Source: Deinococcus radiodurans R1 = ATCC 13939 = DSM 20539
GTDB lineage: Bacteria > Deinococcota > Deinococci > Deinococcales > Deinococcaceae
Direction: 5' to 3'
Length of the DNA stretch: 32,000 nt
Assembly: GCF_000008565.1 (NCBI RefSeq)
Contig: NC_000958.1
Coordinates: 145,467-177,466, forward strand
Below the pieces are notes generated by a model that worked only from the letters and a program-made list of their open reading frames with translations, was not told the DNA's origin and made no database searches. The number at the start of each line of letters is the position of its first letter. The stretch's first letter is position 1. This document shows positions 1,698 through 32,000 of the stretch, piece by piece. A program made the position numbers and the translations under genes.

Positions 1698-1712
1698 GTT
1701 AAAAGTGGCCCT

Positions 1713-1733: not shown

Positions 1734-2002
1734 GCGAATTTCTCAGTTTCAGTGGGTTTTCGCTCGCTCCCCTGCTTTTGAGTCGCTTTGAAAGGTCAAG
1801 CCGTCGTCTCATGACCGCGTGGCGCTTGCCGCGTCGATATGCTGTCGGCAGGATTTCTGACTTTATAGACACAGTGACCATCGGCACTGATACCCGGTCT
1901 GAACTTTTGTAATTGTCGCGGCTCCTGAACCCTCACCAGCTCCGCCGACCGCAGACTGAAGGGAAAGCCAGCAGCTCCCGGCCAGTCTCTGTGTCGCTGG
2001 TC

Positions 2003-8656: not shown

Positions 8657-8676
8657 GTCAAAGCCCCTACTCCTTT

Positions 8677-10185: not shown

Positions 10186-10310
10186 CCATGGCTCTTGAGC
10201 AGAACTGCTGCCGCTCTCCGAACTCAACGGCCTGCTCCTTGCAGACGCCGTTCGACTCCAGTCGGCGCTCTCAGTAGGTGACAACTTCGGTTCGACGTTG
10301 TCCCAGACGG

Positions 10311-10354
10311 CAAAAACCAACAGTCGGCCCCATCAAGCTTGATGGGGCCGACTG
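10311..10354 (-). terminator. Perfect 34-nt palindrome (15-bp GC-rich stem, AGCT loop) followed on the minus strand by TTGGTTTTTG; candidate rho-independent terminator
   Basis: 10321-10354 CAGTCGGCCCCATCAAGCTTGATGGGGCCGACTG equals its own reverse complement. A T-rich tail follows only on the minus strand (comp. 10311-10320). Confidence 0.5.
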
Positions 10355-10370
10355 TTCGCGGTGTCCTGAG

Positions 10371-11602
10371 AGTGTGAAATCAACAGAGGGGAGCTGCCCA
10401 GCAGGCTACCGCACTCACCGGGCACTTCAAAACGCATGCCAGTCACCTCCGCATCGATACACTCCAGCGCCTCATTGACGTCCTCCTGGCGATGATTGAC
10501 GCGAGGAGCGTCAATCATCACGACCTGAGTGCCCATATGCCGGGGATGAGTACCCCGCAGGGCAAGAAGAGACGAGCAGACCGCACCTTCCGGGATGAGC
10601 AGCTGGACAGGGGCTTTTTCATCGCTCTGCTTGTCGTCCATCTTCCACCGGGGAAGGTTTTGCTAAGTCTGGACCGCACCAATTGGGAGCACGGGGAAAC
10701 GCCCATCAACTTTCTGGTGCTTGGAGCCGTGGTTCACGGCTTCACCCTGCCGCTCATCTGGGTGCCTCTCGACCAGTCTGGGAACAGTCACACCTACGCT
10801 CGAATGTGGCTGGTGTTGAAGCTCCTTCGGGCCTGGCCAGCGAAACGCTGGCTGGGTCTGGTGGCCGATCGGGAGTTCATCGGCGCGGAATGGTTCCGCT
10901 TTCTTCGTCGTCAGGGCATCAAGAGGGCAATTCGTATCCGACAGACCGACATGCTAGACGACATGAATGGGAAAGAGTGGTTTGAGCATGTCCAGCACGG
11001 TCATTTTCACGAGATCGGCGAAAAGGTGTTCGTGTTCGGGGAGTTGATGCGGGTGGTCGCAACGAGGTCACCTGTGGGTGACCTCGTCATCATCGCCACA
11101 GATTTCAGTGCTCGGAAGACCTGGAGGCTCTACAAACAGCGCTGGTCGATTGAGTGCACCTTCAGCAGTTTCAAAAAGCGAGGCTTTGACTTAGAGCGAA
11201 CCGGAATGACGGAAAGGAGCCGTCTACAGCGACTCTTCGGACTGGTGACATTGGCTTGGATGTTCTGTTTGCGCCTGGGGGTCTGGCTGAGCCAGACCTG
11301 GCCCATCCCTGTTCTAAAGCATGGTCGGAGAGCGGTCAGTCTGGTACGGCACGGCGCTCAGCATCTCGTGGATGCCCTACGGTGGAAACCCCAACAGTTC
11401 ATGGCGATCCTGGAGGTGTTCATCCAGGCTTTTTGCCTGCCAGGAGCGGCTGAAAGTGAAGTTGTCACCTACTGAGGAAACCGGTACATTTCCACGACAC
11501 GGCTTGTCAAATGGCTCACTTCGCATTTGGTCGCCGCTTCCTTCAGGGCCAACAGCGGTGCCTTCTATGACTGAAGTGTCCAATATCCGTTTTTTTCACA
11601 CT
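10371..11602 (+). mobile_element. IS4-family element, boundaries tentative (possibly 5'-truncated)
   Basis: It contains an IS4-type transposase ORF. AGTGTGAAA at 10371-10379 is the reverse complement of TTTCACACT at 11594-11602, with partial similarity further inward. That is weak IR evidence. Confidence 0.4.
10492..11475 (+). CDS. IS4-family DDE transposase (start uncertain or N-terminally defective)
   Basis: Motifs LSLDRTNW, LVADREF and YKQRWSIECTFSSFK (Y-2-R-3-E-6-K) are present. The same frame is open for 38 more sense codons back to 10378 without any ATG/GTG/TTG, and is preceded by GTG-TGA at 10372-10377. Confidence 0.8.
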   Translation: MIDARSVNHHDLSAHMPGMSTPQGKKRRADRTFRDEQLDRGFFIALLVVHLPPGKVLLSLDRTNWEHGETPINFLVLGAVVHGFTLPLIWVPLDQSGNSHTYARMWLVLKLLRAWPAKRWLGLVADREFIGAEWFRFLRRQGIKRAIRIRQTDMLDDMNGKEWFEHVQHGHFHEIGEKVFVFGELMRVVATRSPVGDLVIIATDFSARKTWRLYKQRWSIECTFSSFKKRGFDLERTGMTERSRLQRLFGLVTLAWMFCLRLGVWLSQTWPIPVLKHGRRAVSLVRHGAQHLVDALRWKPQQFMAILEVFIQAFCLPGAAESEVVTY

Positions 11603-14700: not shown

Positions 14701-16827
14701 GGGCGTGCTGGGCGCAGCGGGCAGCCCGCACTGGTGATGACCTACGCCACCACCGGTAACAACCATGACCAGTATTTCTTCCGGCGCCCGGGGCTCATGG
14801 TGGGCGGCAGCGTCTCTACCCCGCGGCTAGAACTGGGCAACGAGGCGCTGGTCAGGTCGCATGTGCACGCCATCTGGCTGGCCGAGACCGGCCAGAAGTT
14901 GCCGCCTTCGGTGGCCGAGCTGCTTGACGTGAATGGTGAAGACCCCACTCTGGCGCTGCTGCCGGACTTCCAGCATCCGTTTCAGGATGAGGGCGTACAA
15001 AAGCGCACTCTGATTCGGGCACGGCAGCTCATCGCTGGTCTGGGCGTGGACCTCACAGGGACCGGGTGGTACAGCGAGGAATGGCTCACTTACACCGTCA
15101 AACACGCCGCCCGTGAGTTTGACCGGGCCTGCGACCGCTGGCGTGACCTTTACCGCAGCGCCCTCTCGCAGCTTCACCTCAACAACGCCGTGCTGGCCGA
15201 CGCGGGCAAACGCCACCTTCAGGAACAGGCGCGCCGCCTGCACGCTGAGGCGAACACGCAGCTCAGCTTGCTGCGCAGTCCTGAAGGCGAGCTGTCGGAC
15301 TTTTACACCTACCGCTACTTGGCTTCTGAGGGCTTCTTACCGGGATACAACTTCGCGCGTCTGCCCCTCTCGGCTTACATACCCGGACGGCGCGGCGCGA
15401 AGGCAGGAAGGGACAGCTACCTCTCGCGGCCCCGCTTTCTGGCGCTCTCTGAGTTCGGGCCAAACGCCATCGTCTATCACAACGGCGCGAAGTACGAGGC
15501 CCACAAAGTCATCGTGCCGGCCCGCGGTGAAACCAGTGAACTGCCCACAGTGAGTGCCCAGCGCTGTGAGCAGTGCGGCTACCTTCACCATGGCAGCGGC
15601 GACGTTCAGGGCGATCAGGGTGCCCGCGACGTGTGCGAGAACTGTCAGGCCCAGCTCGCGCCCCCGCGCCCGGACCTCTTCCGCATGACCTCAGTGGCGA
15701 CCCGCCGCCGCGAGCGCATCAGCAGTGACGAAGAAGAGCGGCGCCGGATCGGCTTTGACGTCAAGAGCGGCATGCGCTTCGCTTCGCGCGGGGGGCGGGC
15801 CGACCGCGTGCAGGCGCTGGCAGCCACCGACGCGCCGCTGCTGCGCCTGACTTACGGCGACGGCGCGACGCTCTGGCGCATCAACTATGGCTGGCGCAAC
15901 CGCGAAAACAAGCAGGAACTCGGCTTTCTCTTTGACCCCGAGACCTCACAGTGGCTCAGCAAGCAGGGGCACGAACGGAAGCTCAAGGCCGCCGGAGGAC
16001 GGGACGTGGCCGTGCAGCGAGTGATTCCCTATGTGGAAGACACCCGCAATGTGCTGCTGATTGAGCCGGCCCTTCCTCTGGATGCGGGCGGCATGGCTAC
16101 GCTGATGAGCGCTCTCAAAAACGCTGCGCAGCTCACCTACCAGCTGGAGGACAGTGAGCTCGCGGCCGAGTTGCTGCCCGACAGCCAGGAGCCGCGCCAA
16201 ATTCTGCTGTACGAAGCGTCCGAAGGCGGGGCCGGCGTACTGCAAGATTTGGTGTTCCGCTCGGGGGCGCTGGGTGAAGTGGCCGCCGCGGCGCTGGGCC
16301 TGCTGCACTTTGACCCCCTGACGGGCGAGGATCACGGGCACGCCCCCCACGCGGCGGAGCGCTGCGAAGCGGCCTGCTACGACTGTCTGATGACTTATGG
16401 CAACCAGACGTTTCATGACCTGCTTGACCGCTTCGCCGTGCGCGAACTGCTGCTGCGACTGCGTGAGGCGCGGGTCACCTTGCCCGGTGACGCAGGCGAC
16501 CCTTTTGAGACCCTCTGCGCGGCGTGCGGCAGTGAACTGGAGCGCGAATGGTTGCGCTTTGTGCGGGATGAGGGCCGGCGTCTGCCGTCACACGCGCAAC
16601 TGCTCGTGCCGGACCACTACGCCCGCCCGGACTTCGCGTACGCCGAGCAGGCGGCCCTGATCTTCATCGACGGGCCCCACCACGACCAGCCTGGTCAGAC
16701 AGGCCGCGACGCCCGACTGCGCGAAGAGTTGGAGTTTGCCGGGTATACCGTCGTGCCCTTTACGCATGACCGCAGCACCTGGCCGGCGCAACTTGCCCGC
16801 TACGCATTCATTTTCGGGGAAGGATAA
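11707..16827 (+). CDS. Large DEXH-box helicase fused to a DUF1998-type Zn-binding region and a C-terminal Vsr/DUF559-like endonuclease domain (DrmA+DrmB-like / DruE-like)
   Basis: 1706 aa with a GTG start.
- Helicase motifs: GTGSGKS (12031-12054), DELH (12370-12381), [19 protein letters not shown].
- CxxC...CxxC insert: 13057-13068 and 13390-13401.
- DUF1998-like region: [22 protein letters not shown] (15565-15644), [23 protein letters not shown].
- C-terminus: [12 protein letters not shown]...RPDFAY...LIFIDGPHH...[12 protein letters not shown], which resembles DUF559/Vsr-fold nucleases. Confidence 0.9.
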
Positions 16828-16829
16828 CT

Positions 16830-19655
16830 ATGACGTTTGATATCGGTTCAATGGTGCGTGCCCGTGGGCGCGACTGGGTGGTGCTGCCTGAAAGCGGCGC
16901 GGACTTCCTGCTGCTGCGTCCCCTGGGCGGCAGCGACGCAGAAATCGCGGGCGTGTACGCCGGGGAGGGTGGGGAGGAGGTCACCTCGGCAGCGTTCGCC
17001 CCCCCGAGCCCCGCGGCCTTCGGGACCGCGAGTGGAGCGCGGCTGCTGCTGAACGCGGCCCGGCTGGCGGTGCGCAGCGGCGCTGGGCCCTTCCGGTCCC
17101 TGAGCCGCCTGGGCGTGGAGCCGCGCCCGTACCAGCTGGTGCCGCTCCTCATGGCCCTGCGCCAGAGCCCGGCCCGGCTGATGATCGCCGACGACGTGGG
17201 CATCGGGAAGACGGTGGAAGCCGCCTTAATCGCCCGCGAGCTGCTGGACCGGGGCGAGATCGACCGCCTGACGGTCCTGTGCCCACCGCACCTGGCGGGA
17301 CAGTGGGTGGAGGAATTGCGGGTCAAGTTCGGCATCGACGCGGTGGCCGTGCTGCCCGGCACCGCCCGGCGCCTGGAAAAGGGCTGTAACCCTGGCCAGA
17401 GCGTCTTTGAGCGCTACAAATTCACGGTGGTCAGTCTCGACCTCGTGAAGTCGGACCGGTGGCGGCAGGACTTTCTGACCAATGCGCCCGATTTCGTCAT
17501 CGTGGACGAGGCGCACGCCAGTGCTGAGGGCGAGGGCATGGGCACCAAGCGCCACCAACGCTACCGGCTGCTCGAAGACCTCGCCAGGAAGGAAGACCGG
17601 CACCTGATTCTGGTCACCGCCACGCCCCACAGCGGCAAGGAAGACGCCTTCCGCAGCCTGCTGCGGCTGCTCAATCCCGACTTCGCCAGGCTGCCACTCG
17701 ACCTCAGCGGGGCGCAAAACGAGCGTGCCCGCGCGACCCTGGCCCGGCACCTCGTGCAGCGCGGGCGTAAGGACATCGCAGAGTACCTGCAGGAAGACAC
17801 TCCTTTTCCAACCCGGCGCGACGCCGAGCTGCACTACGCCTTGCACCCGGACTACGCCGCCCTCTTTGACGACGTGCTGGCCTACGCCCGCGAGAGTGTC
17901 CACGTGCCCGGCGAGGCCCAGAGCCGCACCCGCATTCGCTGGTGGGCGGCGCTGGGGCTGCTGCGGGCGCTGGCGAGTAGTCCGCAGGCCGCCGCCGCCA
18001 CCCTGCGCGAGCGGGCCATAGCGGCGGACGACGGAGAGACCGACGAAGCGGTGATCGACCGGCTGGGCCGCGAGCTGGTGCTTGACCCCGAAGAGGGCGA
18101 GGACAGTGCCCTGGACATGACTCCTGGGGCTCAGGTGGACGGTGAGCAGAGTGAAACCACCGGGCGGCTGCTGACGCTGGCGAGCCGGGCCGACGCCCTG
18201 GCCGGGGCCAAGGACAACAAACTGAAGCTGCTGACGGCGCAGGTGCAGGGGCTCGTCGATCAGGGATTTGCGCCCATTGTGTTTTGCCGCTTTATTGCCA
18301 CCGCAGAGGCCGTGGCCGAGCACCTCCGGGGGGCCCTGAAAGGCAGCGAAGTGCTGGCGGTCACCGGACGTCACACGCCCGACGAGCGGGTGGACCGGGT
18401 GGAAGAGCTCGCCCGCGCTGAGCGGCGGGTGCTGGTGGCGACCGACTGCCTCTCTGAGGGCATCAACCTGCAGGCGGCTTTCAGCGCTGTGATCCACTAC
18501 GACCTGCCCTGGAACCCCACCCGACTCGACCAGCGCGAAGGCCGGGTCGACCGCTACGGGCAGGCCAGCCCCGAGGTGCGGGTGCTGACCATCTACGGCG
18601 AGGACAACCGCATTGACACCCTGATTCTGGAGGTGCTGGTGCGCAAGCACCGCTTGATTCGCGCCACGCTCGGCACCAGTGTGCCGGCGCCGGAAGAGGC
18701 CGAGAGCCTGCTCGACGTGCTGCTCAGCCGGGTGCTGAACGCGCAGGGGCGCGAAGTGATTCAGCCGCTGCTCTTTGAGGACGTGCAGGCCTTTGACCTC
18801 AAGTGGCGCGACGCCGCCGAAGGGGAAAAGAAATCGCGCAGCCGCTTTGCCCAGAACAGCATCCGCCCCGAAGAAGTGGCGAGCGAGTTGCGGGCAGTCC
18901 GTGAAGCGCTAGGGGACGCGCACGCGGCGCAAGACTTTGTGCTCGACGCTCTGAGTGGAGCCGGCGTGAGTGTTTCACCGCGTGTGGACGGCAGCTTCGA
19001 GGCCGACCCCGCGCAGGCGGACGTGAGGCCCGAGTACCGCGATTTCCTGCGTGGGGCGCGGCGTTTTCGCTTCGACGCCCAGACTGAGCGCGGCGTGACC
19101 CCGCTTGCCCGCAACCACCCCCTCGTGGAGCAGCTCGCCAGTACGGTGCTGGGGCAGGCGCTCGACGCTCCGCTGGAGGCGGCGGCCAAACGGGTGGGCG
19201 TGATTCGCACCTCCAAGGTTGCCACGCAGACCACGCTGCTGCTGCTGCGTCACCGCTTTCACCTCACGGGGCGCAAGGGCAACCGGACGTGGCAGACGCT
19301 GGCTGAGGAACTCGACCTGCTCGCCTACGCGGGGCGGGCACCGGCGGACGGGAAAGGCGGCTGGCTGGACGCCGAAGCCACCCGCGCCCTGCTCGCCCTG
19401 ACGCCCGAAGGCAACCTCGACCCGGTGCAAAAAGAAGACCGCTTGACCCGCGTTCTGGCCGACGTTCAGGGCCTGGACGGGCCCCTGATGGCCCGCGCTC
19501 AGGAGCGCGCCGCCGCGCTGCTGGAGGCGCACGAGCGGGTGCGTGGGGCCGCGCGCGGGCAGGGCGTGACCTACAGCGTGGAACCGCCCGGCCCCCCAGA
19601 CCTGCTCGGCATTTACGTCTTCCTGCCCCTGCCCAAACTTGGAGCCCTGTCTTGA
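16830..19655 (+). CDS. SNF2-family helicase (DrmD-like)
   Basis: 941 aa. Motifs DDVGIGKT (17190-17213), DEAH (17505-17516), TATPHSG, and helicase-C [12 protein letters not shown]...[22 protein letters not shown]. It starts 2 nt after the preceding stop, with GGAAGGA as RBS. Confidence 0.9.
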
Positions 19656-22264
19656 CCACCCAACTACATCATGTCCGCCTGCACGGCCTGGGCCTGACCG
19701 ACGATTTTCTGCTGCAACTTTCCGACCGCGCCCAGACGGGCAAGGTCGAGGGGGCCACTCCCGCCAGCTACGACCTGCCCCCCAAGACCAGTCTGGAAGA
19801 AGCCATTCAGGACGCCTGGGACGACGCCCGCAAAGCGTGGGCGAAATACCAGCAGCACGGCACCGACGCCTGGGCTGGATGGGTGCGGCCTCTGCTGCGC
19901 GCGCTGGACTACAACTTCGTGGGGGGCGGCGCGGCGGGCGGCAAATACGCCGTGGGCCACCTCACGGAAACCGGGGACGTGCCGCTGCATTTCACCCGGC
20001 AGCCGGACCTTGACCGCGTGACCGACGAAACCGGGCTGCGCGTCAGTCCGCACGGCCTGATGCAGGGCTACCTGAACGCGACGCCGGAGCATCTGTGGGG
20101 CCTCGTGACCAACGGCGAGACGCTGCGGCTGCTGCGCGACAACGCCCAGGTGACGCGCCCGGCCTACGCCGAGTTCCAGATTGGCGAGATGCTGCGCACC
20201 GAGGACGCCCGCGCCTTCCGGGTGCTGTGGCTGCTGCTCCACCGCACCCGGCTGCGCGGCGGCAAGGTGGGGCCGCTGGAAGCCTGGAACGAGGCGAGCA
20301 AGGTGCTCGGCCAGCGCGCCAACGACACCCTGCGCGACGGGGTACAGCTCGCCATCGAGCACCTCGGGACCGGCTTTTTGCGGCACAACCCGGAGCTGCT
20401 GGAGCGCACGCGCAGCGGCGAAGTCAAGGCCGAGGACCTCTACCGCGCGGCCCTGACCACCGTGTATCAGATGGTGTTCCTGTTCGTCACCGAGGACCGC
20501 GACCTGCTGTTTGCGCGGGATGAAGACGGCGAATACCTTCCCGACGCGCAGACCCGCGCCCGCGCCGCGCACTACCTGACCCGCGCCCTGCGGCAGAAAG
20601 CCGGCAGCGTAAACGGCAACCCGCTGCACCACGACGCTTACGTGGCCTGGGAGCGGCTGCTGGGCTACCTGCGCGGCGGCTTTGCCCCGCTGGGCCTGCC
20701 GGCGCTGGGCAGCCTGCTGTTTCAGCCGACCCTGCTCAGTGGCCTGAAACTCGGCAACGACGCTTTTTACGGCGCCGTGCGCGCCCTGAGCGAAATCAGC
20801 GTGAACGGCAGCCTGCGTCCGGTGAACTACGCGGGCCTGGACTCCGAGGAGCTGGGCAGCATCTACGAGAGCCTGCTGGAACTGGTGCCCCGCATCGAGC
20901 CGGGGCCCCGCTTCTCGCTGACCGTGCTGCCCGGCAATGAGCGCAAAAGCACCGGCAGTTACTACACGCCGGGCAGCCTGATTGACCTGCTGCTGGACAG
21001 CGCCCTTGACCCGGTGATCGAAGACGCCGTACGTGACAAGCTCCCGGAAGACGCCATCGCCGCGCTTAAAGGTCTCAAGGTGATCGACCCGGCGTGCGGC
21101 TCGGGGCACTTCCTGATTGCCGCCGCCCGCCGCATTGGAGCGCGGCTGGCCGAACTGGAAGAGGAAACCAGCCTCCCCAGCCCCCGCGCCCTGCGAAAAG
21201 CCACCCGCACCGTCATCGCCCACTGCATCTACGGGGCGGACATCAACCCCATGGCGATTGAGCTGGCCAAAGTCGCCCTGTGGCTCGAAAGCCAGGACGC
21301 GGGCCGGCCCCTGGCCTTCCTCGACCACCGCCTGCGCGTGGGCAACAGCCTGCTGGGCGCCACGCCCGAGCTGATGAACGCCGAGGACGAGATTCCCGAA
21401 AAGACCGTGCGCGGCGTGACCAGCCGGGCCGTCAGGGCCCATACCCTTCACCTGCCCGACGAAGCGTTCAGCGCCATTTAAGGTGACGACAAGAAAACCG
21501 TCTCGGAGCTGAAAAAGCGCAACAAGGCCGAGCGTGAGGCCCTGATTCGCGCTGCCAAAGGCGAACAGAGCCTGTTCGACGTGTCCGGCGACCTCGCGCC
21601 CCTCACGGCAATGGTGCGGGCGCTGGACAAAATCGAACCCGACAGCGCCGAGCACGTGCAGGCGCAGCAGAGTACCTACCACGCCATTCGCCAGAACGCC
21701 CGCTTGCAGGAGCAGCAGCGCCTGGCCGACGCCTGGTGCGCCGCCTTCGTCGCCCCCAAGACCCCCGGCCAACCCGCGCTAACCACCGCCACGCTGCACG
21801 CCCTGAAACGCACGCCGGACGCCCCCGCCCTGCAACCCGTGCGGCAACTGGTGAGCGACGTGGCCGCGCAGTACGCCTTCCTGCATCCGCACATCGAGTT
21901 TCCCGACGTGTTCGGAGACGCGCAAAAAGGTGGCTTCGACTGCGTGCTGGGCAACCCACCGTGGGAACACACGGAATTGAAGGAAAAAGAGTGGTTTGCG
22001 CCGCGAAAACCAGAAATTGCCGACGCCGCCACCGGAGCACTCCGCAAGAAAATGATTGAAGGACTGGCCGAGAATGACCCAAAGCTCTACGCCGACTTCC
22101 TGTTCGCCCGGCGTGAAGCAGACGCCGTGAGTCATTTCGTTTCGGCCAGCGGGCGCTATCCACTGACGGCGCGGGGGCGCATTAACACCTACGCGATTTT
22201 CAGCGAGCTTTGCCGAAACAGTCTCAATCCTTGCGGACGCCTGGGCATCATCGTGCCGACGGGC

Positions 22265-22303
<39 letters not shown>

Positions 22304-22510
22304 TTGATGGACAAAAAGTCGTTGGTGAGCCTGTACGACTTTGAGAACCGCGAAGGCATTTTCCCTGGCGTACACCGCTCATTCAAGTTCTGCATGTTGA
22401 CAGCCAGCGGCGAGAAGCGTCCCAACAATGCCGCGCAGTTCGCTTTCTTTGCCCTGAATGCCGACGAAGCCCGCGACCCCGGCAAGGTGTTCAGCCTCTC
22501 CCCTGCCGAA

Positions 22511-22563
<53 letters not shown>

Positions 22564-23165
22564 TGACGCGGCCATTACGAAGGGCATTTACCAGCGCGTA
22601 CCCGTACTGCTCAATGAGGCGACGGGAGAGAATCCCTGGGGCATCAGCTTCAAGCAAGGGCTGTTCAATATGACCAGCGATTCCGGCCTGTTTCGCACCG
22701 CCGCGCAACTGGACGCCGAGGGCTGGACGCTGGACGGCAACCGCTACCGCAAAGGCCCGGCGCAGATGCTTCCTCTGTACGAAGCCAAGCTAATGCACCA
22801 GTTTGACCACCGCTTCGCCACCTACACCGAGAATGGTGAGACGCGGGACATAACCAGCGCGGAAAAGGCTGACCCGGATTGCTTGCCGTTGCCGCGGTAC
22901 TGGGTAGCAGAAGCGGAAGTAGAAGACCGCCTGATTCAGAAAGATAAAAACGGGCGCGTGACTTGGGAATGGACTCGGGATTGGTTGATGGGCTTTCGGG
23001 ATATAGCACGGGTCACAGATGAGCGAACAGCGATTTTTGGCCTTTTTCCACCCTATGGCTCGGGAAACACAATGCCATTTATGTTTTCTGGCACTTCGGC
23101 ACTAGCTGCGTCAGCCTTGTTTATTGACTCCGGCACGACTTGGAGACGCGAGGTAAACTTAGGAG

Positions 23166-23651
23166 GTGCTGCGCGTCTGGCGACCCTCCACTTTGACTCG
23201 TGACCAGCTGGAAGAACGACGGCTGTATGCTCAGCAGCTCCTCGCCGCAGGTGAGGTCAATGCCAAGGAGATCGCGGCTTCGGTCGGCGTTTCCGAAAGT
23301 ACAGTCCGCACCTGGAAACAGCGTCTCCGAGAACGAGGCAGCCTCCAGGCCACCCGAGCGGCTGGGCCTTCACCGCGCCTGAGGCCAGAACAGCGCACGC
23401 AACTGGGGGAGATCCTGCGCGCAGGACCGCTGGCCGCCGGTTATCCCGACGCGCGTTGGACGACCTCCCGCGTGCGGGAGGTCATTGGCCTGCAATTTGA
23501 GGTGTGGTACCACGCCGATCACGTCAGGAAGTTGCTTCACCAGCTTGGCTTCAGTCCTCAGAAGCCAGAATCGCGTGCCTTGGAACGCGATGAGCAGGCG
23601 GTTCAGACCTGGGTCGAGCAGACGCTCCCCAGCTTGAAAAAAAAAGGTTGA
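23166..23651 (+). CDS. IS630 transposase, N-terminal HTH part (orfA)
   Basis: 161 aa with a helix-turn-helix or winged-helix pattern typical of IS630 ([21 protein letters not shown]; [10 protein letters not shown]...[19 protein letters not shown]). It ends just after an A9 tract. Confidence 0.85.
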
Positions 23652-23658
23652 GCAGGGT

Positions 23659-24177
<519 letters not shown>

Positions 24178-24489
24178 GCCGGAGTCAATAGTGACATGAA
24201 TAGTTATGTCTTGGATTACAGTGCACGTCAGAAAGTCGGCGGTACACATCTGACTTACAACTACCTCAAGCAATTCCCCGTCCTCCCACCCTCCGTCTTC
24301 AACCCTTCCCGCCTTGCCTTCATTACGCCGCGTGTGCTGGAGCTGACGTACACGGCCCACGACCTGTCCGGCTTTGCCCGTGACCTCGGCTACGCGGGCG
24401 AGCCGTTTACCTGGGATGACGAACGCCGCTTCTGGCTGCGGGCCGAACTGGACGCGCTGTATTTCCTGCTGTACGGCATTGAGCGCCCG

Positions 24490-24525
<36 letters not shown>

Positions 24526-24729
24526 AAGCGCAAGGACGTGGCAGCGCACGGAAGCTACCGCACGAAGGAAGCGATTCTGAGCGTGTACGACGAGCTGACG
24601 GCGCTGGGGCTGGAGCGCCTGCACGAGTACGCCAGCCGTGTACCGGGCGGTGCGGTGGCGGGCGGCTGGGGGCCTGAATGAGTTCATTACGTAGCACTTG
24701 TCAGGATTCTGGTACTATCTGGTGGTACC

Positions 24730-24996
24730 ATGACTAAGGTGAGTGGCAGACATCAACGGACGTTAGAGCAGATTTTTGCCCGTCCGATCTCTGGCACCAT
24801 TCATTGGGACGCGATAGAAAAGTTACTTGTTCACCTGGGAGCAGAAATCAGTGAGGGAAGTGGTTCACGGGTTCGTATCAGCCTTCGTGGGGTACGCGCC
24901 GTGTTTCATCGCCCTCATCCCCAGCCCACAACCGATAAAGGGGCCGTGAATGATGTCAGGAAACTTTTAGAAAACGCCGGTATACGTCCTGAATAA
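24730..24996 (+). CDS. hicA: HicA-family toxin (type II TA)
   Basis: 88 aa. The pattern RHQRTLEQIFARP..I.W.AIEKLL..LGAEISEGSGSRVRISL.G....FHRPHP....DKGAVNDVRKLLENAGI matches my recollection of the HicA/YcfA-like toxin family. It sits immediately upstream of a HicB-like gene. Confidence 0.75.
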   Translation: MTKVSGRHQRTLEQIFARPISGTIHWDAIEKLLVHLGAEISEGSGSRVRISLRGVRAVFHRPHPQPTTDKGAVNDVRKLLENAGIRPE

Positions 24997-25035
24997 TTAG
25001 TAGAAGCAATGGCATCATTTGCAAGGAAAACCAAG

Positions 25036-25542
25036 ATGACGACTTTAGAATATCGAGGCTATATAGGTAGCGTGACCTTTGATGCGGAAGCGGAAATTCT
25101 GCATGGCACGGTAGTCAACACCCGTGACGTCATTACCTTTCAGGGCGAGAGTGTCTCTGAGATCAAGCAGGCTTTTAAAGAGAGTGTAGAAGATTATCTG
25201 GCTTTCTGTGCCGAGCTGGGCGAGGAACCAGAAAAACCTATGAGTGGTAAATTTAATGTCAGGATTTCGCCTTTGCTCCACGCCCAGGCAGTTGCAATGG
25301 CACAGTCGCAAGAAATCAGCCTCAATACGTTGGTCGAACGCGCTATAAACGATGTGGTAAACCGCTCAGCTTCTGTGGATGCTCAGTCAGCTCAAGACCA
25401 CCAACCGAATACGGACGAAGAGTGTGATAGCGACAGGGAAATATATGATGTTGCTATACATTGGAGCGGCACAAGACTTGCAAAGGCATCGTCTGTCATG
25501 ACGTCTATGCAGCAATCTCTTGAAGTTCGGGTAACGAACTGA
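25036..25542 (+). CDS. hicB: HicB-family antitoxin with RHH-type DNA-binding region and a ~59-aa C-terminal extension
   Basis: LEYRGYIGSVTFDAEAEILHGTVVNTRDVITFQGESVSEIKQAFKESVEDYLAFCAELGEEPEKPMSGKFNVRISPLLH...SLNTLVERAI is the COG4226/HicB pattern. I prefer ATG 25036, with AAGGA about 8 nt upstream, over the ORF-track start at 25009. Confidence 0.85.
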   Translation: MTTLEYRGYIGSVTFDAEAEILHGTVVNTRDVITFQGESVSEIKQAFKESVEDYLAFCAELGEEPEKPMSGKFNVRISPLLHAQAVAMAQSQEISLNTLVERAINDVVNRSASVDAQSAQDHQPNTDEECDSDREIYDVAIHWSGTRLAKASSVMTSMQQSLEVRVTN

Positions 25543-26099
25543 TGCCCCGTAGAACCAGCCAGGAAGTGTCTCAAGCCGAGTCAATGGTATTGGATGCACT
25601 CACATACAACCGGTTCGTTGCGGGTGTGCAGCCCACCCGTATCGAACTGGGCGAGGTCAGTGCCAGCGCTAAGCCCTCGGATTTTCAGGAGCTTGACGTC
25701 AGAGTAGACAGTCATTTCAAGGTGCAGTGTCTCAAATCGAATGCTCAGGCCCGTACTTTTGAGATAGATGCCCAACTAGAACTGCATTTCATTGCCGCGA
25801 ATGAACAGAAGGTAGGGCAATTTGTTTGCCTGTACCACCTGTCTTACCTATCGGTAGAGGCACTGAGCGACGCGCTCCTCGAAGAATTTGCACGCCGGAA
25901 CGCGCCTGTGAACGTCTGGCCATTTATGCGGGAGCTGGTGCTGAATCTAACGCAGCGCTTCGGCTGGACCGGCTTCGTTCTGCCTAGTTTTCTTATTCCG
26001 CCTAGTCCTGAAAAGGCGTCAGACCCGGAAACAGCATCACATGATGCAGAAGTCGTCCCGGCTTCCAAGAAACCTCGCAAGGCTAAGACGAAAGCATGA
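25542..26099 (+). CDS. SecB-like chaperone (candidate TAC chaperone)
   Basis: 185 aa. The C-terminal core NAPVNVWPFMRELVLNLTQRFGWTGFVLPSF parallels E. coli SecB [32 protein letters not shown]. The preceding beta-rich region has a similar length. Its start overlaps the hicB stop (TGATG) and its stop overlaps the next start (ATGA). Confidence 0.65.
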   Translation: MPRRTSQEVSQAESMVLDALTYNRFVAGVQPTRIELGEVSASAKPSDFQELDVRVDSHFKVQCLKSNAQARTFEIDAQLELHFIAANEQKVGQFVCLYHLSYLSVEALSDALLEEFARRNAPVNVWPFMRELVLNLTQRFGWTGFVLPSFLIPPSPEKASDPETASHDAEVVPASKKPRKAKTKA

Positions 26100-29005
26100 G
26101 CGACGCTGCCATTTCGTGTTCTTGGAAGCCTTTTTTCCGCGAGTTGGCGACCCGGCTTCTGGACTATGAAGACCGCCAGCCTGAACTGCTTGCTGCGCTG
26201 CGTGACGCGAGCATCAGCATCAACCATGACGAAGGGGAGCCCCTGCGTGAAGTAGACCCATTCACGTTCTTCTCTTTGGTCCTCAAGCACACCTCAGACG
26301 CCACAGCTTTGCCGCTGTTTGCCAGGGTTGGGGCCGCTCTGGGGGTTCAGGCTCCTTCTCCTACAGACCTGATAGGCGTGCCGTGGAGCAACCCCATGAA
26401 TGCCTGGTTTTTTGCTTATCGCAGTCAGCGTCAACCGGGGGACGTACCGCTCCTCTGGCGACTGGCGCGGCAGGCAGTGGCCGGTATTCTGGACGCTCAG
26501 ACCTTTGAGGACGCCCTGAAGATTCGCAAGGTGGCGCTGCCCAAGCTGACCCAGGGTCTTTTCTGGCTCAACCCCGAGCGATTCCTGGCCCTCAATGCTG
26601 TCAATGTGCCTTATCTGCAGGCGCGTGGTCTTCAGGCGGCTGGTCAGGTTCAGACTCTTGCAGAGTATGAGACCGTTCTGGAGGCGGCTCACAAGCTCAA
26701 CCCTGACTTTGCGGCTTTGTCGCACCGGGCGTGGCTCAACAGCCAGACGGCGGCTCTGGAAGGCAATCATTTCCCGTTTGCCCGGTATCAAGCCGACGCG
26801 CAGGAATTTGCGGGGGACAAAGTCAAGGGCAACCTCGTGCTTGACCGCCGTTACGCGCCACTGCTGCTGGACTTGATGGCCGGCGAGTGGGAGACGCTGA
26901 AGCCCTCACGCTCGCCCTACAGCGGTCGGGAGCAACTCGCCGTCAAAGTGGCGCTGGGCGGCGGCGTCAAGACCGATGGCGGCGCCTTTGCGCGGGCGCT
27001 GCTGTTCGCCGACGACAGTGGGTTCGAGTACGTGCCTTTCTCAGCGGGGCTGACCCTGGAAGCCGGGCTGCCTGATGGCCGGGGAGACGGGCCCCGGCAG
27101 GCGCTGCAGGAGCCCGCTCGCCAGCACACCCTGCTGACGGCGCTCAATGCCCCTTTGCCGGCTGGCCTGGAAGCGACCCTCACCCTGAATACAGATTTTG
27201 GGGCCCTGTTTTTGTTGCCGCTGGGACCCGGGCGAGAAGCCGAGGCCGCGCAGCAGCTTCAGCAGTACATGTCGGGCGTGGGCCGCAGTCGCCGCTTGCG
27301 CGTGGGCCTGAGCCTGCTTCCCGAGCACCTCGAATCCGACAAGTTCCCCGAGCTGCTGGACGCGGCCCTGACATACCTTGACGCCCTTGTGGACCTGCTC
27401 GACGGCCTGATGCGTCCCAGCGAGGAGACATCGACTGAGGAAATTGGGGTTCCCGGCACCCGGCCTGTCGCCCCGACACCAGCGGCCTTCGTTCCAGTGC
27501 CGGGCGTGCCGCTCAACCAGATTCTTTATGGCCCTCCCGGCACCGGCAAGACCTACCGCGTGGTGGACGAGGCGCTCTCGGTCCTTGACCCGGCTTTCTT
27601 ATCTGCTCACCCCGGCAGCGAGGGCCGCGCGGCCCGTAAAGCCCGCTACGACGAGCTGGCCGCGCAAGGTCAGATCTCCTTCGTGACCTTCCACCAGTCT
27701 TTCGGTTACGAAGACTTCATTGAGGGCATCAAGCCGGTGATGTCCGGCGGGGCCCTCTCTTACGTGCTGCAAGACGGCGTGTTTCTGGAAGCGGTGCGGT
27801 CTGCCGGTGGTGCCCTCGCGCCGGCGGCACCGGAAGCTGGTCCCTCGACTGAAACACAGCCGCTGGTGCGCCCGGACGCGCAGGTCTGGCGAATGTACAT
27901 TGACGGCACAGCGCCGGTCAGCCGCATCCGTGACCTGAGTCTGGGCCGTGGCGAGCTGAGGATGGGCAGTTACGGGAAGCCGCCGCGCGATTTGACCCAA
28001 GCGGGCGTTGAGGACCTCAGCGGGCGACAGCTTCTTTTTAAGGAGAGCGTTCGTGTAGGGGACCTTATGCTGCTCGCCACTGCCGCCGACCGCATCGGGG
28101 CGGTGGGCGTGGTGACTGGCGACTACCGCTTTGACCCGCACAGTGACCCGACGTTTGCCACCGATTACGCCCACACCCGCTCTGTGAAGTGGTTGGCCCA
28201 AGACCTGAATGTCGGCGCCACCGAGACGCTTGGAAAATCGTTCGCCCCCCCGACCCTGCAGCGGGTGGCCGATGTGACCCCGGCACAAGTGCTTCAGGCC
28301 CTCGGTGTGTCTACGGCAGGCGGAGAGACCGCTCATGCGCCCACGCCGCGCCCGCACGTCCTGATCATCGACGAGATCAACCGCGGCAACATCTCCAAGA
28401 TTTTTGGGGAACTGATCACCCTGCTCGAAAGCGGCAAGCGGACCGGGGCGCCGGAAGCCCTGACCGTCACCCTGCCCCTGAGCCGCCGCCCCCTCAGCGT
28501 GCCGCAGAGCCTTTACGTCATCGGCACCATGAACACCGCCGACCGCAGCCTGACCCTGCTTGACGCCGCGCTGCGCCGACGCTTCGTCTTCCGGCCCGTG
28601 TGGCCCCAGCCCGAGGTTCTGCCGGTGCTCGACCTTGGCGGCACGGCCCTGGACCTGCGCAAGTTCCTGCACGTCATCAACGACCGCATCGAGCGCCTTC
28701 TCAGCCGCGAGCAGGTCATTGGACACGCCTACTTGCTGGGGCTGCCCGCCACGCTGGGCGGCGTATCCAGTGCTCTACGCGAGCGCATTTTGCCGCTGCT
28801 GGAAGAGTATTTCTTTGAGGACTGGAGCAAGATCCGTGAGGTTCTCGGCGATGAGAGCAAGGCGGAAGCGCTGCAGTTCATTCACCGCAGCGGCTCAGGG
28901 CCCGAGCTGCGTTACCGCCTGAATCCTGAGGCCTTCGAGAACATTGAAGCCTTCACCGGAGTTTATGCGGGCGTCAGCGATCAAGATTTCCCGTTTGACG
29001 CCTGA
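26096..29005 (+). CDS. mcrB: McrB-like AAA+ GTPase with ~470-aa N-terminal region and an insertion inside the AAA+ module
   Basis: 969 aa. Walker A GPPGTGKT (27530-27553), FHQSFGYEDFIEGIKP, Walker B/McrB signature LIIDEINRGNISKIFGELITLLE (from 28370), IGTMNTADRSL, and RRRF. Confidence 0.9.
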   Translation: MSDAAISCSWKPFFRELATRLLDYEDRQPELLAALRDASISINHDEGEPLREVDPFTFFSLVLKHTSDATALPLFARVGAALGVQAPSPTDLIGVPWSNPMNAWFFAYRSQRQPGDVPLLWRLARQAVAGILDAQTFEDALKIRKVALPKLTQGLFWLNPERFLALNAVNVPYLQARGLQAAGQVQTLAEYETVLEAAHKLNPDFAALSHRAWLNSQTAALEGNHFPFARYQADAQEFAGDKVKGNLVLDRRYAPLLLDLMAGEWETLKPSRSPYSGREQLAVKVALGGGVKTDGGAFARALLFADDSGFEYVPFSAGLTLEAGLPDGRGDGPRQALQEPARQHTLLTALNAPLPAGLEATLTLNTDFGALFLLPLGPGREAEAAQQLQQYMSGVGRSRRLRVGLSLLPEHLESDKFPELLDAALTYLDALVDLLDGLMRPSEETSTEEIGVPGTRPVAPTPAAFVPVPGVPLNQILYGPPGTGKTYRVVDEALSVLDPAFLSAHPGSEGRAARKARYDELAAQGQISFVTFHQSFGYEDFIEGIKPVMSGGALSYVLQDGVFLEAVRSAGGALAPAAPEAGPSTETQPLVRPDAQVWRMYIDGTAPVSRIRDLSLGRGELRMGSYGKPPRDLTQAGVEDLSGRQLLFKESVRVGDLMLLATAADRIGAVGVVTGDYRFDPHSDPTFATDYAHTRSVKWLAQDLNVGATETLGKSFAPPTLQRVADVTPAQVLQALGVSTAGGETAHAPTPRPHVLIIDEINRGNISKIFGELITLLESGKRTGAPEALTVTLPLSRRPLSVPQSLYVIGTMNTADRSLTLLDAALRRRFVFRPVWPQPEVLPVLDLGGTALDLRKFLHVINDRIERLLSREQVIGHAYLLGLPATLGGVSSALRERILPLLEEYFFEDWSKIREVLGDESKAEALQFIHRSGSGPELRYRLNPEAFENIEAFTGVYAGVSDQDFPFDA

Positions 29006-30333
29006 TGCCAGGGGCGCCTCCTCCGAATCAAGCCCCGCATTTTGAGGTCCGTGAGCACGACCTCTTGGTGCCTGGCATCCGTCGTCCTGAGTGGAAGGCC
29101 AATGTCACGGCTCTGCCCCCGGCAGTCTTTGAAGCCGTGCAGGCTGCCTTGTTCGACCCTCGGTATGAGCTGAGCCCGGTGGCCACCATGACCCGCTTTG
29201 AGGGCCGTGCGGCCCTGAAGCTCACGCAGTGGGTGGGGCTCCTGCGTACCCCAGACGGCGCGACGGTGGAGATCTTGCCCAAGACCCACGAGCGCCCGGG
29301 CACTCGCACCGGAGCCGAGTCCCTGGAGCGCAGCCGCGCACTGCTGCTGCGTATGCTCGCCGCCACCGACGAGCGCTTCCGGGTGGCGCCGCCAGCCGAG
29401 TTGCAAACCGCCCACATGCCGCTTTACGAGGTGGTCATCCGCTACGCCCTGGAAGGCGTCCGCGCCGCCGTTCGCCGGGGCATTCCACACGCTTATGTTC
29501 CGGTGCAGGAGGAACGCCCTGGACTGCGGGGCCGGCTGGACCTTCCCCGGCAGGTGCGGCAACCGCCCCACCGCGCCCACCTGCTCCACGTCACCTACGA
29601 CGAATTTTTGCCGGACCGGCCTGAGACACGCCTGACCCGCCTTTCGGTAGAACGTCTCGCTGCCCTGACCCGCCTGCCGGCCAACCAGCGCTTGGCCCGC
29701 GAACTCCTTCATGCTCTGGATGAGGTGCCCCCGAGCCGCAACGTCAACGTGGACTTCGCGGCGTGGCGGCTGGGCCGGGGGCACACCCACTTTGCGCCGC
29801 TTGAGGCGCTGTGCCGCATGGTGCTTTATGAACTCAATCCCATAGTGGCTGGGAAAAAAACCCAGGCTCACGCGCTGCTGTTCGACATGAATGTGGTCTA
29901 CGAGGCTTACGTGGCCCAGCTTCTGCGTCGCCTTTACCCGACGTGGACGGTTGCTACCCAGGTCACCCAGCGGGCCCTGGGAGACGCTGACGGCCTTCCC
30001 GCCTTCCGGTTGCGCCCCGACCTGTTGCTGCGCACAGAAGAGGGGCAGGTCATCGTCGCGGACACCAAGTGGAAGCGCCTTGAGGCCGACAAAGCCCCCA
30101 CCTACGACGTGGCCAATGCAGACGCCTATCAAATGCTCGCCTATAGCGAGGCCTTTCAGCACAGCGCGGCGTACACGCACAAGGCCCTCTGGCTGATCTA
30201 CCCCCGATTGCCCGGCCTGCCACCTGTCAGTGCTCCCATCCGCCTTGGGCAGGGGCGCACCCTCAGCATCGTCACCATTGACCTGAATCAGGCGGACCCT
30301 GGGGCACAATGGCCAGCTTCGGTCTTGACCTGA
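29005..30333 (+). CDS. mcrC: McrC-like PD-(D/E)xK nuclease subunit
   Basis: 442 aa. RPDLLL...VIVADTKWKRL (30061-30080) and NADAYQMLAY match the McrC nuclease core pattern. Its start overlaps the mcrB-like stop (TGATG). Confidence 0.8.
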   Translation: MPGAPPPNQAPHFEVREHDLLVPGIRRPEWKANVTALPPAVFEAVQAALFDPRYELSPVATMTRFEGRAALKLTQWVGLLRTPDGATVEILPKTHERPGTRTGAESLERSRALLLRMLAATDERFRVAPPAELQTAHMPLYEVVIRYALEGVRAAVRRGIPHAYVPVQEERPGLRGRLDLPRQVRQPPHRAHLLHVTYDEFLPDRPETRLTRLSVERLAALTRLPANQRLARELLHALDEVPPSRNVNVDFAAWRLGRGHTHFAPLEALCRMVLYELNPIVAGKKTQAHALLFDMNVVYEAYVAQLLRRLYPTWTVATQVTQRALGDADGLPAFRLRPDLLLRTEEGQVIVADTKWKRLEADKAPTYDVANADAYQMLAYSEAFQHSAAYTHKALWLIYPRLPGLPPVSAPIRLGQGRTLSIVTIDLNQADPGAQWPASVLT

Positions 30334-30481
30334 ACACACTCAGCGGTACGCACGAGGGCAGCAGCTGACCTCCCACAGCTCATCCTCTGCTCTCAAGGGC
30401 CAGGCACGATGTCCTTAATACCTAACAGGTTGAGATGCCATCCGGCCCTGCTCGGGGGATCAACAGTTTGTCATCTCCCGC

Positions 30482-30760
30482 CTAGAGAGGCAGCAGAGGA
30501 TTGAGACTGCGCCTGAGTTGATCGACTTGATCATCGAGGGTGGCCGACGACACCGCTGCGGCCAACACACGGGCTAATGCCGCCGCCTGAATTTCCCCGC
30601 TGCGGCAGCGCTCTTCCAGCCGCTCCCATTGGTCGGGGCTGAAACGTTTGCGCAAGTACAGGTGCAGCGTTCCCTTATGGGCTTCCCACTGCTCCGTGGG
30701 CGACCTGCTTTCTAACGCTGCCAACTGTGCGAGGAGTTCGCTTTGCTCAGCCTCGACCAC
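30482..30760 (-). CDS. Hypothetical small protein downstream of repA-like gene
   Basis: 92-aa ORF with a GTG start, 17 nt after the RepA stop, and codon third positions fairly GC-rich. I recognise no family and see no clear RBS. Confidence 0.35.
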   Translation of the reverse strand: MVEAEQSELLAQLAALESRSPTEQWEAHKGTLHLYLRKRFSPDQWERLEERCRSGEIQAAALARVLAAAVSSATLDDQVDQLRRSLNPLLPL

Positions 30761-30777
30761 TTTCTGCCGCTTTGCAG

Positions 30778-31878
30778 TCAGCTCCGACAGCCGCTGCTCA
30801 CGTTCACGGCGAGGTTCGACGAACTCTTCCGGAAGCTGATATTTGCCTGGATTCTCGATGAAGTCCGCAACCAGGCCGCCGGGATTACGTACCGTGCCGC
30901 CCGTGCTGGCCCTGCGGCTTTCCAGAAACCGCAGGCCTCCTCCACCCGTTCCGGGTGCTGCGCGGCCAGAGCTGTGGCGCGTGAGACCGTCACGCCCGCG
31001 TGGCGCAGCAAGACCACGAGCGCCGGATCCGCCGCTCCCCTCTCCGCAAAGGTGTAAGAGGCGTAGGCCTTCTTGCCGCGCCCCTCAATGCTCACGGCTT
31101 CCAGATACCTGTTGGCCAGCAACTCGTCATGGGCCGCTTCAAGAGCGCGGCGAACAAGGTCCGTGCGTTCGGTGGTGAGGCCGGTCGCCAGCCGCCACTC
31201 CGCCAAAGGAACACGTAACTGATCAAGCAATGTCCCGTCATCTTGCCGCCGGTGTGCCTGCAACGTCCGGTACAGGGCGCGTGCCGGTGGCTGCTCCAAC
31301 TGATGAAGCAATTGGCCGTCCAGCACCTGAGAGACACCGTTGCGGATGCTGGCGGCCAGTTGCTCACCCAAACGGATGCTCAGGGTCGCTTCGCCGTCCA
31401 ACATGCTGAGGGCGTTGGCATCTTCAGCGTCACGGTAACGGATGCCTTCAAGAAACCTCACACCCACGTTGTCCCAAGTCACCCTGCCCGACGCGTTGGC
31501 GACAGAAGTCTTACGGCCCACGATCACGCTCGTCAGGTAAAGCCGTCGCAGGCTCTGACGCAGCCGGTGGTAGCTGTCCCCGTTGTTGCCCAGCCCCATG
31601 AGTTCACGCATTTCGTAGGCGGTCGTGTGGACCCAATTGTCTTCCGGGCAGCTGCTCGCAACAAACAAGGTCTCGACAGCTACCAGCGTGTCGGTATCGA
31701 TGCCATGAGGACGGCCTTCAGGCGTAATCGCTTCGATCCGAAACGTCCTGCCGTTAATGGTGAACTCCGACTTCCAGCTGGTCACCTCACGGTCAATTCT
31801 GGAGTGCATGCTGATCACGCCGAACCGGGCGAAATTGAGTTCGTCATGAAAATTGTTGGGCTTGGGTTTCTTGGGCAT
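30778..31878 (-). CDS. Plasmid replication initiator protein A (RepA/RPA family)
   Basis: ELNFARFGVISMHSRIDREVTSWKSEFTINGRTFRIEAITPEGRPHGIDTDTLVAVETLF fits the replication initiator protein A pattern. I prefer ATG comp. 31876-31878 (MPKKPKPNNF), preceded by AGGAAG, over the ORF-track start at 31971. Confidence 0.7.
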   Translation of the reverse strand: MPKKPKPNNFHDELNFARFGVISMHSRIDREVTSWKSEFTINGRTFRIEAITPEGRPHGIDTDTLVAVETLFVASSCPEDNWVHTTAYEMRELMGLGNNGDSYHRLRQSLRRLYLTSVIVGRKTSVANASGRVTWDNVGVRFLEGIRYRDAEDANALSMLDGEATLSIRLGEQLAASIRNGVSQVLDGQLLHQLEQPPARALYRTLQAHRRQDDGTLLDQLRVPLAEWRLATGLTTERTDLVRRALEAAHDELLANRYLEAVSIEGRGKKAYASYTFAERGAADPALVVLLRHAGVTVSRATALAAQHPERVEEACGFWKAAGPARAARYVIPAAWLRTSSRIQANISFRKSSSNLAVNVSSGCRS

Positions 31879-31893
31879 CTCTTCTTCCTGAGG

Positions 31894-31938
31894 TGTTGTT
31901 GTTTTTAAATACTTAAAAGATATAAAAGAACAACAACA
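31894..31938. repeat. 10-bp perfect inverted repeat (TGTTGTTGTT / AACAACAACA) flanking a 25-nt fully A/T-rich spacer, immediately upstream of repA
   Basis: 31894-31903 is the reverse complement of 31929-31938. The spacer is TTTAAATACTTAAAAGATATAAAAG. This is the most AT-rich spot in the window. Confidence 0.5.
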
Positions 31939-32000
31939 AGGACGGCTTCTCTCGTCGTGCTGGACGAACATTTTCGACTTTTTCCCGCAAAGGTGTCGCT

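Follow-up and report, generated by a model that had tools for sequence, protein, structure and literature searches.

Does the toxin-antitoxin-chaperone (TAC) module on megaplasmid MP1 of Deinococcus radiodurans R1 merely adjoin the McrBC-like restriction genes that follow it, or do hicA, hicB, a secB-like gene, mcrB and mcrC form one operon? We addressed this question in a window of 32,000 nucleotides (nt) of contig NC_000958.1 (positions 145,467 to 177,466, forward strand), which matches MP1 at 100% identity; coordinates below are positions in this window unless a locus handle precedes them. An earlier note on the sequence had proposed, from a chain of overlapping stop and start codons, that the McrBC-like genes are co-expressed with the TAC module and perhaps regulated through it. 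Our analysis favors, with a probability of about 0.6, a single stress-inducible operon in which the TAC supplies the promoter and, as we infer, the repressor for McrBC, the distal genes are translationally coupled, and the two modules are mechanistically separable, since each occurs without the other in relatives. The locus is a new arrangement of two well-known defense modules, not a new kind of system. Full-text searches (TAC with Deinococcus; SecB-like with McrBC) found no such operon described, in line with the note's statement that it knew of no TAC-McrBC composite.

All three overlaps reported earlier are present in the sequence. The hicB stop and secB-like start codons share TGATG at 25540-25544 (1-nt overlap), the secB-like stop and mcrB start share ATGA at 26096-26099, and the mcrB stop and mcrC start share TGATG at 29003-29007 (1-nt overlap). 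Operon junctions typically show overlaps of -1 or -4 nt, so three in a row indicate an operon rather than an oddity as such; they go beyond chance because they are conserved in related loci. The overlaps hinge on the start codon chosen, and here RefSeq records disagree. NZ_CP038993 and NZ_CP150842 differ in the start codons of secB-like, mcrB and mcrC for one identical sequence: one RefSeq record places them at 25566, 26396 and 29188, the newer one at 25584, 26096 and 29068, respectively, and WP_010883985 is the mcrB product of 26096-29005. The gene tables consulted for these records lack hicB.

To compare the long and short forms, we looked at homologues and codon positions. Each overlapping ATG is the first start past the nearest upstream stop in its frame, and later starts cost conserved residues. 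At the equivalent ATG, all secB-like homologues (18/18) start with MPR or MAR. Across its first 100 codons, which the shorter annotation drops, mcrB shares 79% protein identity with the closest homologue (locus L007), with differences of 0.23, 0.13 and 0.52 at codon positions 1, 2 and 3; this concentration at third positions is the pattern of a coding sequence. For mcrC codons 1-61 the corresponding values, 0.38, 0.30 and 0.57, are weaker than for mcrB and are accompanied by conserved blocks. The long forms of secB-like, mcrB and mcrC are the better supported on these grounds, and the RefSeq starts are probably too short.

The absence of terminators between the genes, also claimed earlier, was borne out: no terminator-like site lies at any junction, and 7 kb of sequence contain 2 such sites compared with 5.7 +/- 2.3 in shuffles, the sole one on the plus strand lying inside mcrB. 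A scan of 24000-31000 found no promoter-like site at the junctions, and folding of 30325-30480 found no terminator after mcrC (z-score -0.6). In heat-shock RNA-seq (48 versus 30 degrees C; Table S1 of PMC6888292), the log2 changes are 5.05 for DR_B0141, 4.91 for DR_B0142, 4.35 for DR_B0143, 3.31 for DR_B0144, 2.95 for DR_B0140 and -1.91 for DR_B0137, and DR_B0135, B0136, B0138, B0139 and B0145 are not on the differential list. Published tables label DR_B0141 "HicB-related" and DR_B0142 "hypothetical"; we assigned DR_B0143 to mcrB and DR_B0144 to mcrC by position. The genes from hicB to mcrC are accordingly heat-induced together, as the proposal of co-expression had it, and DR_B0145 and the upstream neighbors B0135-B0139 are not induced. 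An induced block that starts in the TAC, decays from 5' to 3' and ends after mcrC is the pattern expected of one transcript. DRB0141 is also listed as radiation-induced (PMC1978522), and for this reason we considered a site for DdrO (radiation/desiccation response) upstream of hicA; the spacer there shows no 17-bp palindrome by eye, and the candidate was rejected.

The first three genes conform to the genetic definition of a TAC. hicA and hicB lie on the same strand 39 nt apart and form a type II toxin-antitoxin (TA) pair, both products scoring above the Pfam gathering score for their families; RefSeq names the first a HicA family toxin. hicA shares 77% identity with its counterparts in D. radiophilus and L010. 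The Pfam HicB match covers amino acids (aa) 63-113 of a 177-aa form of the antitoxin, and homologues align from the ATG at 25036. Past the DNA-binding domain, HicB carries a C-terminal tail of ~55 aa, a candidate chaperone-addiction (ChAD) tail. All nine antitoxins compared that lie beside this chaperone have long tails of this kind, and the HicB of L010 and an HTH_37 chimera at L014 have part of the tail in common.

Matches of the secB-like product at the sequence level are weak and under curated cutoffs (Pfam SecB 4.9e-4, NCBIfam SecB 6.9e-4). A PADLOC match to PD-T4-9_C (1e-4) is likewise weak, and the secB-like alignment, run as a profile against PDB sequences, retrieved no SecB; the fold was therefore tested by structure prediction. 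An AlphaFold (AF2) model built on 19 homologues has a mean predicted local distance difference test score (pLDDT) of 73.7, high in the core (aa 19-139). Its best Foldseek match is 5mtw_C, the M. tuberculosis chaperone Rv1957 with a ChAD peptide (E 9.6e-9, TMt 0.82), followed by the SecB structures 1ozb, 1fx3 and 1qyn. A SecB-fold gene thus lies directly downstream of the TA pair, overlapping hicB by 1 nt. The end of the protein (aa ~150-185, 26000-26099) is a disordered C-terminal tail that closes on a conserved basic ..KPRKA.. in all homologues, unlike the acidic tail of canonical SecB, and the mcrB start codon falls within the coding sequence for the end of this tail.

The two distal genes encode an McrB-family AAA+ protein and its nuclease partner, presumably a modification-dependent nuclease. 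McrB contains Walker A (GPPGTGKT, aa 479), the Walker B motif DEINRGN (aa 759) and the signature MNTADRS (aa 812); its NCBIfam McrB match (3e-25, 88.9 bits compared with a cutoff of 637) marks it as not an equivalog. McrC, encoded directly downstream, matches Pfam McrBC over the full profile and has a PD-(D/E)xK motif (RPD at aa 337 and ADTKWK at aa 352). The N-terminal domain of McrB (DUF8425 in precomputed Pfam matches; modeled as aa 1-225, 26096-26770) is all-alpha with an AF2 pLDDT of 94.5. Its model has no significant PDB neighbor (best E 0.54), and the weak structural list consists nearly entirely of helix-hairpin-helix (HhH) DNA glycosylases (MagIII, MutY, OGG). About 270 residues separate Walker A from DEINRGN (aa 479-765, 27530-28390), which we take as a large AAA+ insertion; in E. 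coli McrB this spacing is much shorter. PADLOC PDC-S02 matches aa 644-704. McrB of this type is widespread, occurring on 160 PLSDB plasmids, 63 of them from Klebsiella.

How might the TAC control its downstream neighbors? We propose that hicA, hicB, secB-like, mcrB and mcrC would be transcribed as a single five-gene unit at the end of a defense island. Transcription would start in the 48-nt spacer at a -10-like TACTAT box (24713-24718) that lies within an inverted repeat, GGTAC-N9-GTACC (24711-24729), abutting the hicA ATG; this repeat is the putative HicB operator. A block of the spacer, ATTCTGGTACTATC.GG..GTACCATGACTAAGGTGA, is conserved in D. radiophilus, and the sequence farther upstream diverges. 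Anti-Shine-Dalgarno duplex free energies weaken from -5.2 kcal/mol for hicB through -4.7 for secB-like and -2.8 for mcrB to +0.4 for mcrC, whose start has no upstream Shine-Dalgarno sequence. This weakening along the operon is consistent with ribosomes reinitiating at the overlaps to translate the distal genes: mcrB and mcrC would be translated by termination-reinitiation, with secB-like at least partly coupled to hicB. As in other TAC systems, the chaperone would stabilize HicB by way of the antitoxin's C-terminal tail, and the promoter would, by analogy with general type II TA behavior, be repressed by HicB or HicAB. Heat, radiation or phage proteins could then occupy the chaperone or destabilize HicB, freeing the HicA RNase, and the same trigger would de-repress the operon and raise McrBC.

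Several observations weigh against this one-operon model. The co-induction comes from one RNA-seq study and is not proof of a single mRNA, and DR_B0140, the position of which is not mapped with certainty, is induced less (2.95). A repeat finder run on 24640-25060 returned no inverted repeat, the 5-bp arms of the candidate operator being below its threshold. The sole sigma-70-like match in 24000-31000 (24968-24997, TAGAAA-18-AATAAT) lies in the last codons of hicA and precedes hicB, not hicA; judged by its position, it may act as an additional promoter from which hicB and the genes after it, but not hicA, are transcribed. Finally, some relatives have gaps or an extra gene between secB-like and McrB, so direct coupling is not a conserved requirement.

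The adjacency of secB-like and McrB recurs in other Deinococcus and is not unique to this replicon; uniqueness is part of what the earlier note would have counted against its proposal. The secB-like relatives fall into 19 clusters, and those with a source name are all Deinococcus. We read the gene context of nine distinct secB-like loci; relatives in D. arcticus, D. malanensis and D. detaillensis were left out of this comparison. McrB and McrC of the same type lie downstream on the same strand in 8/9 loci (the R1 stretch, L004, L005 from D. murrayi, L007-9, L010/11, L012, L014 and L097 from Deinococcus sp. RL), in the order toxin, antitoxin, secB-like, (0 or 1 gene), McrB, McrC. D. radiophilus has the TAC without McrBC and insertion sequences in that place. 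Five loci show -1 and two show -4 at the junction from antitoxin to secB-like, and the junction from McrB to McrC is -1 or -4 wherever examined. The junction from secB-like to McrB is more variable: -4 in three loci (R1, L005, L007), gaps of 51 and 168 nt in two, pAgo between the genes in two and a GIY-YIG gene in one. Profile scans with the secB-like alignment returned one confirmed locus only, D. murrayi, from genome contigs and none from viral contigs.

The TA pair itself changes among these loci, being HicAB in three lineages and Gp49/HTH_37 in six, and the tail-plus-chaperone region persists throughout. The L014 antitoxin (L014 1586-2185) joins an HTH_37 (HigA-like) N-terminus to a HicB-type ribbon-helix-helix (RHH) segment and a tail like that of the L010 HicB; from its composition, this chimera looks like the trace of a TA replacement in place that spared the chaperone-binding end. 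The pairwise identities of secB-like correlate with those of McrB (r 0.84, Mantel p ~2e-4, n=8), as is expected of any linked genes; in view of this co-divergence, a recent independent origin of the secB-like gene was rejected.

All secB-like loci with upstream sequence follow the same MmeI/DrmMI-type methyltransferase or its remnants, indicating that the recurrence reflects one ancestral Deinococcus island that has diversified. L010/11 had been taken as an independent plasmid context until tblastn revealed a helicase N-terminus fused to a methyltransferase C-terminus and an uncalled hicA; these remnants identify it as a deletion derivative of the same island, and independent recurrence was withdrawn.

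Recurrence by shared descent is also what one would see if the TAC and McrBC were mere neighbors, the TAC having landed, as a selfish addiction cassette or as a separate module for abortive infection, in a recombination hotspot of the island near a plasmid replication gene. McrBC would then run on its own signals inside upstream coding sequence, the overlaps would reflect genome compaction, and co-induction would be read-through that regulates nothing. The place between methyltransferase and mcrB also holds pAgo, a GIY-YIG protein, an M78 peptidase or nothing in other loci, and repA (30778-31971) lies convergent, 444 nt downstream of mcrC. Besides the TAC without McrBC in D. radiophilus, McrBC of this type occurs without the TAC at L096, L098, L099, L102 and L103; the McrBC-only set comprises D. 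piscis, L098, Deinococcus sp. NW-56 and sp. QL22 (next to BREX genes) and D. actinosclerus. The chaperone is found in 0/80 distant McrB-family metagenome loci, 55 of which have at least 1 kb upstream, and among the 160 plasmids with this McrB type, only those of D. radiodurans also carry it. Against this stand the near lack of Shine-Dalgarno sequences at mcrB and mcrC and the lack of intergenic room for a promoter, the graded induction over exactly these genes that ends at both flanks, the conservation of the overlaps between species, and L010/11, which lost nearly all of the helicase-methyltransferase block yet kept TAC and McrBC together. We consider simple neighborhood, the main rival to the one-operon model, unlikely on this balance.

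To locate the joint between the modules, we compared the window with L098, a sequence from a sequencing run of a near-identical strain. By blastn, L098 954-1361 matches 24271-24677 (91%) and L098 1790-5895 matches 26744-30850 (98.9%), with nothing matching between. L098 therefore lacks 24678-26743, comprising the spacer, hicA, hicB, secB-like and the first 216 codons of mcrB, and has in their place 49 nt and a DUF4357-type McrB N-terminal domain. This gap puts the recombination joint inside mcrB at ~26744, not at the secB-like/mcrB overlap, and R1 has that overlap in common with L005 and L007. The secB-like/mcrB overlap is ancestral and arrived ready-made with the cassette, in which the TAC and the McrB N-terminal domain were exchanged as one piece. 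The lower GC content of the TAC genes, from which a separate origin and later welding had been proposed, is real: 0.506 from hicA to secB-like compared with 0.655-0.661 for mcrBC (mcrB from 26744 on, 0.655; mcrC, 0.661), with 0.594 for the 5' part of mcrB and 0.532 for the cassette. The welding part of that proposal does not hold in its original form, as the joint lies within mcrB and the secB-like/mcrB overlap is ancestral. The TAC genes are lower in GC than mcrBC at every locus, so composition alone cannot date the joint.

The pairing of the TAC with an McrB N-terminal domain in the variable cassette brings up a closer association, in which the five genes form one integrated defense system: the SecB-like chaperone or the antitoxin tail would act directly on McrB, for example on its N-terminal domain, or McrBC would be a second effector once the TAC senses a phage protein, and the modules would be interdependent. 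The chaperone-McrBC link survives TA replacement, chaperone and McrB co-diverge, and the basic ..KPRKA.. tail is conserved. Deletion of mcrC or mcrBC on MP1 failed in three attempts, a wild-type copy always being kept, although an earlier mcrB insertion mutant was reported viable (PMC10085245). There is a precedent in the PrrC RNase, kept latent by a type I restriction-modification complex (PMC3506569). Both modules nevertheless stand alone in close relatives, extra genes or gaps part them in 5/8 linked loci, and the co-divergence needs no explanation beyond linkage, which together make interdependence quite improbable. A related idea, improbable as it stands, is that the SecB-like chaperone and antitoxin tail would be a sensing unit tied to the McrBC lineage rather than to a toxin family, making the five genes one layered defense in which phage or stress signals, by occupying the chaperone, switch on the RNase and also raise or directly license a modification-dependent nuclease, the exchangeable N-terminal domain of which is carried by the same cassette. 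That the TAC is a decaying remnant without current activity, as the lower GC of the cassette and the adjoining methyltransferase gene broken by ISDra3 might suggest, is hard to credit given three intact open reading frames with family matches and a confident SecB fold, hicA and hicB 76-77% identical to copies in two other lineages, and genes that rank among the most heat-induced of the cell.

If HicB controls the operon, the nuclease would be low in unstressed cells and raised when the TA switch trips, which would make the locus a specific and testable instance of the coupling proposed to link immunity with dormancy. In addition, it clearly illustrates from nature how a cargo slot flanked by two conserved defense genes exchanges its contents: TA pairs, pAgo, nucleases and even the McrB reader domain. 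For engineering of D. radiodurans, in which mcrBC resists deletion, the operon structure suggests accounting for the upstream TAC and its promoter. Coordinates of the features are collected in Table 1.

Table 1. Features of the TAC-McrBC locus, in window positions
Feature	Position	Strand	Evidence or remark
Spacer 5' of hicA, candidate promoter/operator	24682-24729	+	48 nt; putative function, from sequence
hicA, HicA-family toxin, 88 aa	24730-24996	+	Pfam HicA_toxin E 2.5e-10
hicB, HicB antitoxin, 168 aa (old tag DR_B0141)	25036-25542	+	Pfam HicB E 9e-23
secB-like, TAC chaperone, 185 aa (old tag DR_B0142)	25542-26099	+	Foldseek on AF2 model
mcrB, McrB-family AAA+, 969 aa (old tag DR_B0143)	26096-29005	+	Pfam AAA_5 2.5e-13
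mcrB 5' part, aa 1-216, DUF8425-type N-terminal domain	26096-26743	+	Part of the same replaceable cassette as the TAC
mcrC, nuclease subunit, 442 aa (old tag DR_B0144)	29005-30333	+	Pfam McrBC E 9.1e-100
Strain-variable cassette: spacer, hicA, hicB, secB-like, mcrB 5' domain	24678-26743	+	blastn vs L098

The surrounding island runs in the order helicase, SNF2, methyltransferase, variable slot, McrBC, and the TAC occupies the variable cargo slot between the conserved methyltransferase gene and mcrB. The island start (11707-21481) includes a 1706-aa helicase with an MZB/DUF1998 domain (DruE 1e-88, DrmA 6e-20), and the SNF2 helicase is matched more strongly by DpdE (1.4e-231) than by DrmD (5.6e-79). 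The MmeI-type methyltransferase (DrmMI 1.7e-65; 19652-24681) is broken, first by a split at 21481/21581 and then by ISDra3 (IS630 family, 23166-24177), leaving a 161-aa C-terminal remnant at 24196-24681. The helicase-SNF2-methyltransferase block is conserved in at least 5 other Deinococcus loci. In D. radiophilus, an independent DDE_Tnp_1 insertion lies in the same methyltransferase gene, and mcrBC is also lost. Slot cargo at other loci includes a 674-aa pAgo after the TAC (L004 7653-9677 and L097 4980-7004; PADLOC pAgo 1.2e-32), a 433-aa GIY-YIG protein (L012 1504-2805) and, in D. piscis, a low-GC M78 peptidase in place of the TAC (L096 5899-6699). Some slot inserts (L096, L010) are bordered by short duplicated pieces of the 3' end of the methyltransferase gene. 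The left part of the window (1-11475) is not defense-related, encoding a periplasmic binding protein, two CNNM/CorC transporters, TerC and a sodium:alanine symporter; this part also has a pair of transposase genes of the DDE_Tnp_1 type, at 7400-8602 (minus strand) and 10492-11475 (plus strand).

Among known systems, the upstream neighbors recall DISARM class 1 in their DrmA/DruE-like MZB (DUF1998) helicase, SNF2 helicase and DrmMI/MmeI-type methyltransferase. They differ from it in that the genes examined here include no phospholipase D (PLD)-type nuclease (DrmC), the SNF2 protein scores better as DpdE and the methyltransferase is disrupted in D. radiodurans; any assignment to DISARM is tentative. 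McrBC of E. coli (EcoKMcrBC) shares with the proteins here an AAA+ subunit with Walker A, DEINRxN and MNxxDRS, an McrC with PD-(D/E)xK, and two adjacent, overlapping genes. By contrast, the N-terminal domain here is unrelated, being of the all-alpha DUF8425 type (DUF4357 type in relatives), and NCBIfam scores are far under equivalog cutoffs.

The survey of Sala et al. 2013 (PMC3581621) had already recorded TACs of the HicAB type as well as TACs from Deinococcus-Thermus. The TAC of M. tuberculosis (Rv1955-Rv1957: HigB1, HigA1 and the SecB-like chaperone) has the same order of toxin, antitoxin and SecB-like chaperone on one strand and a long antitoxin C-terminal tail, and its chaperone Rv1957 is the best match of our model. 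The toxin here is HicA, not HigB, and the operon runs on through overlapping codons into mcrB and mcrC. TACs are known as anti-phage systems (PMC11618068), as exemplified by CmdTAC/PD-T4-9 of E. coli, a TAC that works by abortive infection, the chaperone profile of which, PD-T4-9_C, is the one weakly matched by the secB-like product. CmdTAC serves as a model for triggering through loss of antitoxin protection (PMC11618068), with the differences that CmdT is an mRNA ADP-ribosyltransferase whereas the toxin here is a HicA RNase, and that the three genes of CmdTAC stand on their own, in an operon that contains no restriction genes. Neither the idea of immunity-dormancy coupling nor the PrrC precedent is new (Makarova et al. 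2012, PMC3506569). PrrC-EcoprrI parallels the D. radiodurans locus in placing an RNase toxin gene within a restriction operon, the idea being that translation arrest reinforces DNA restriction (PMC3506569), but no antitoxin accompanies PrrC, which the restriction complex itself inhibits. With a complete antitoxin and chaperone encoded alongside HicA, no restriction protein is needed to hold the toxin of D. radiodurans, unlike PrrC.

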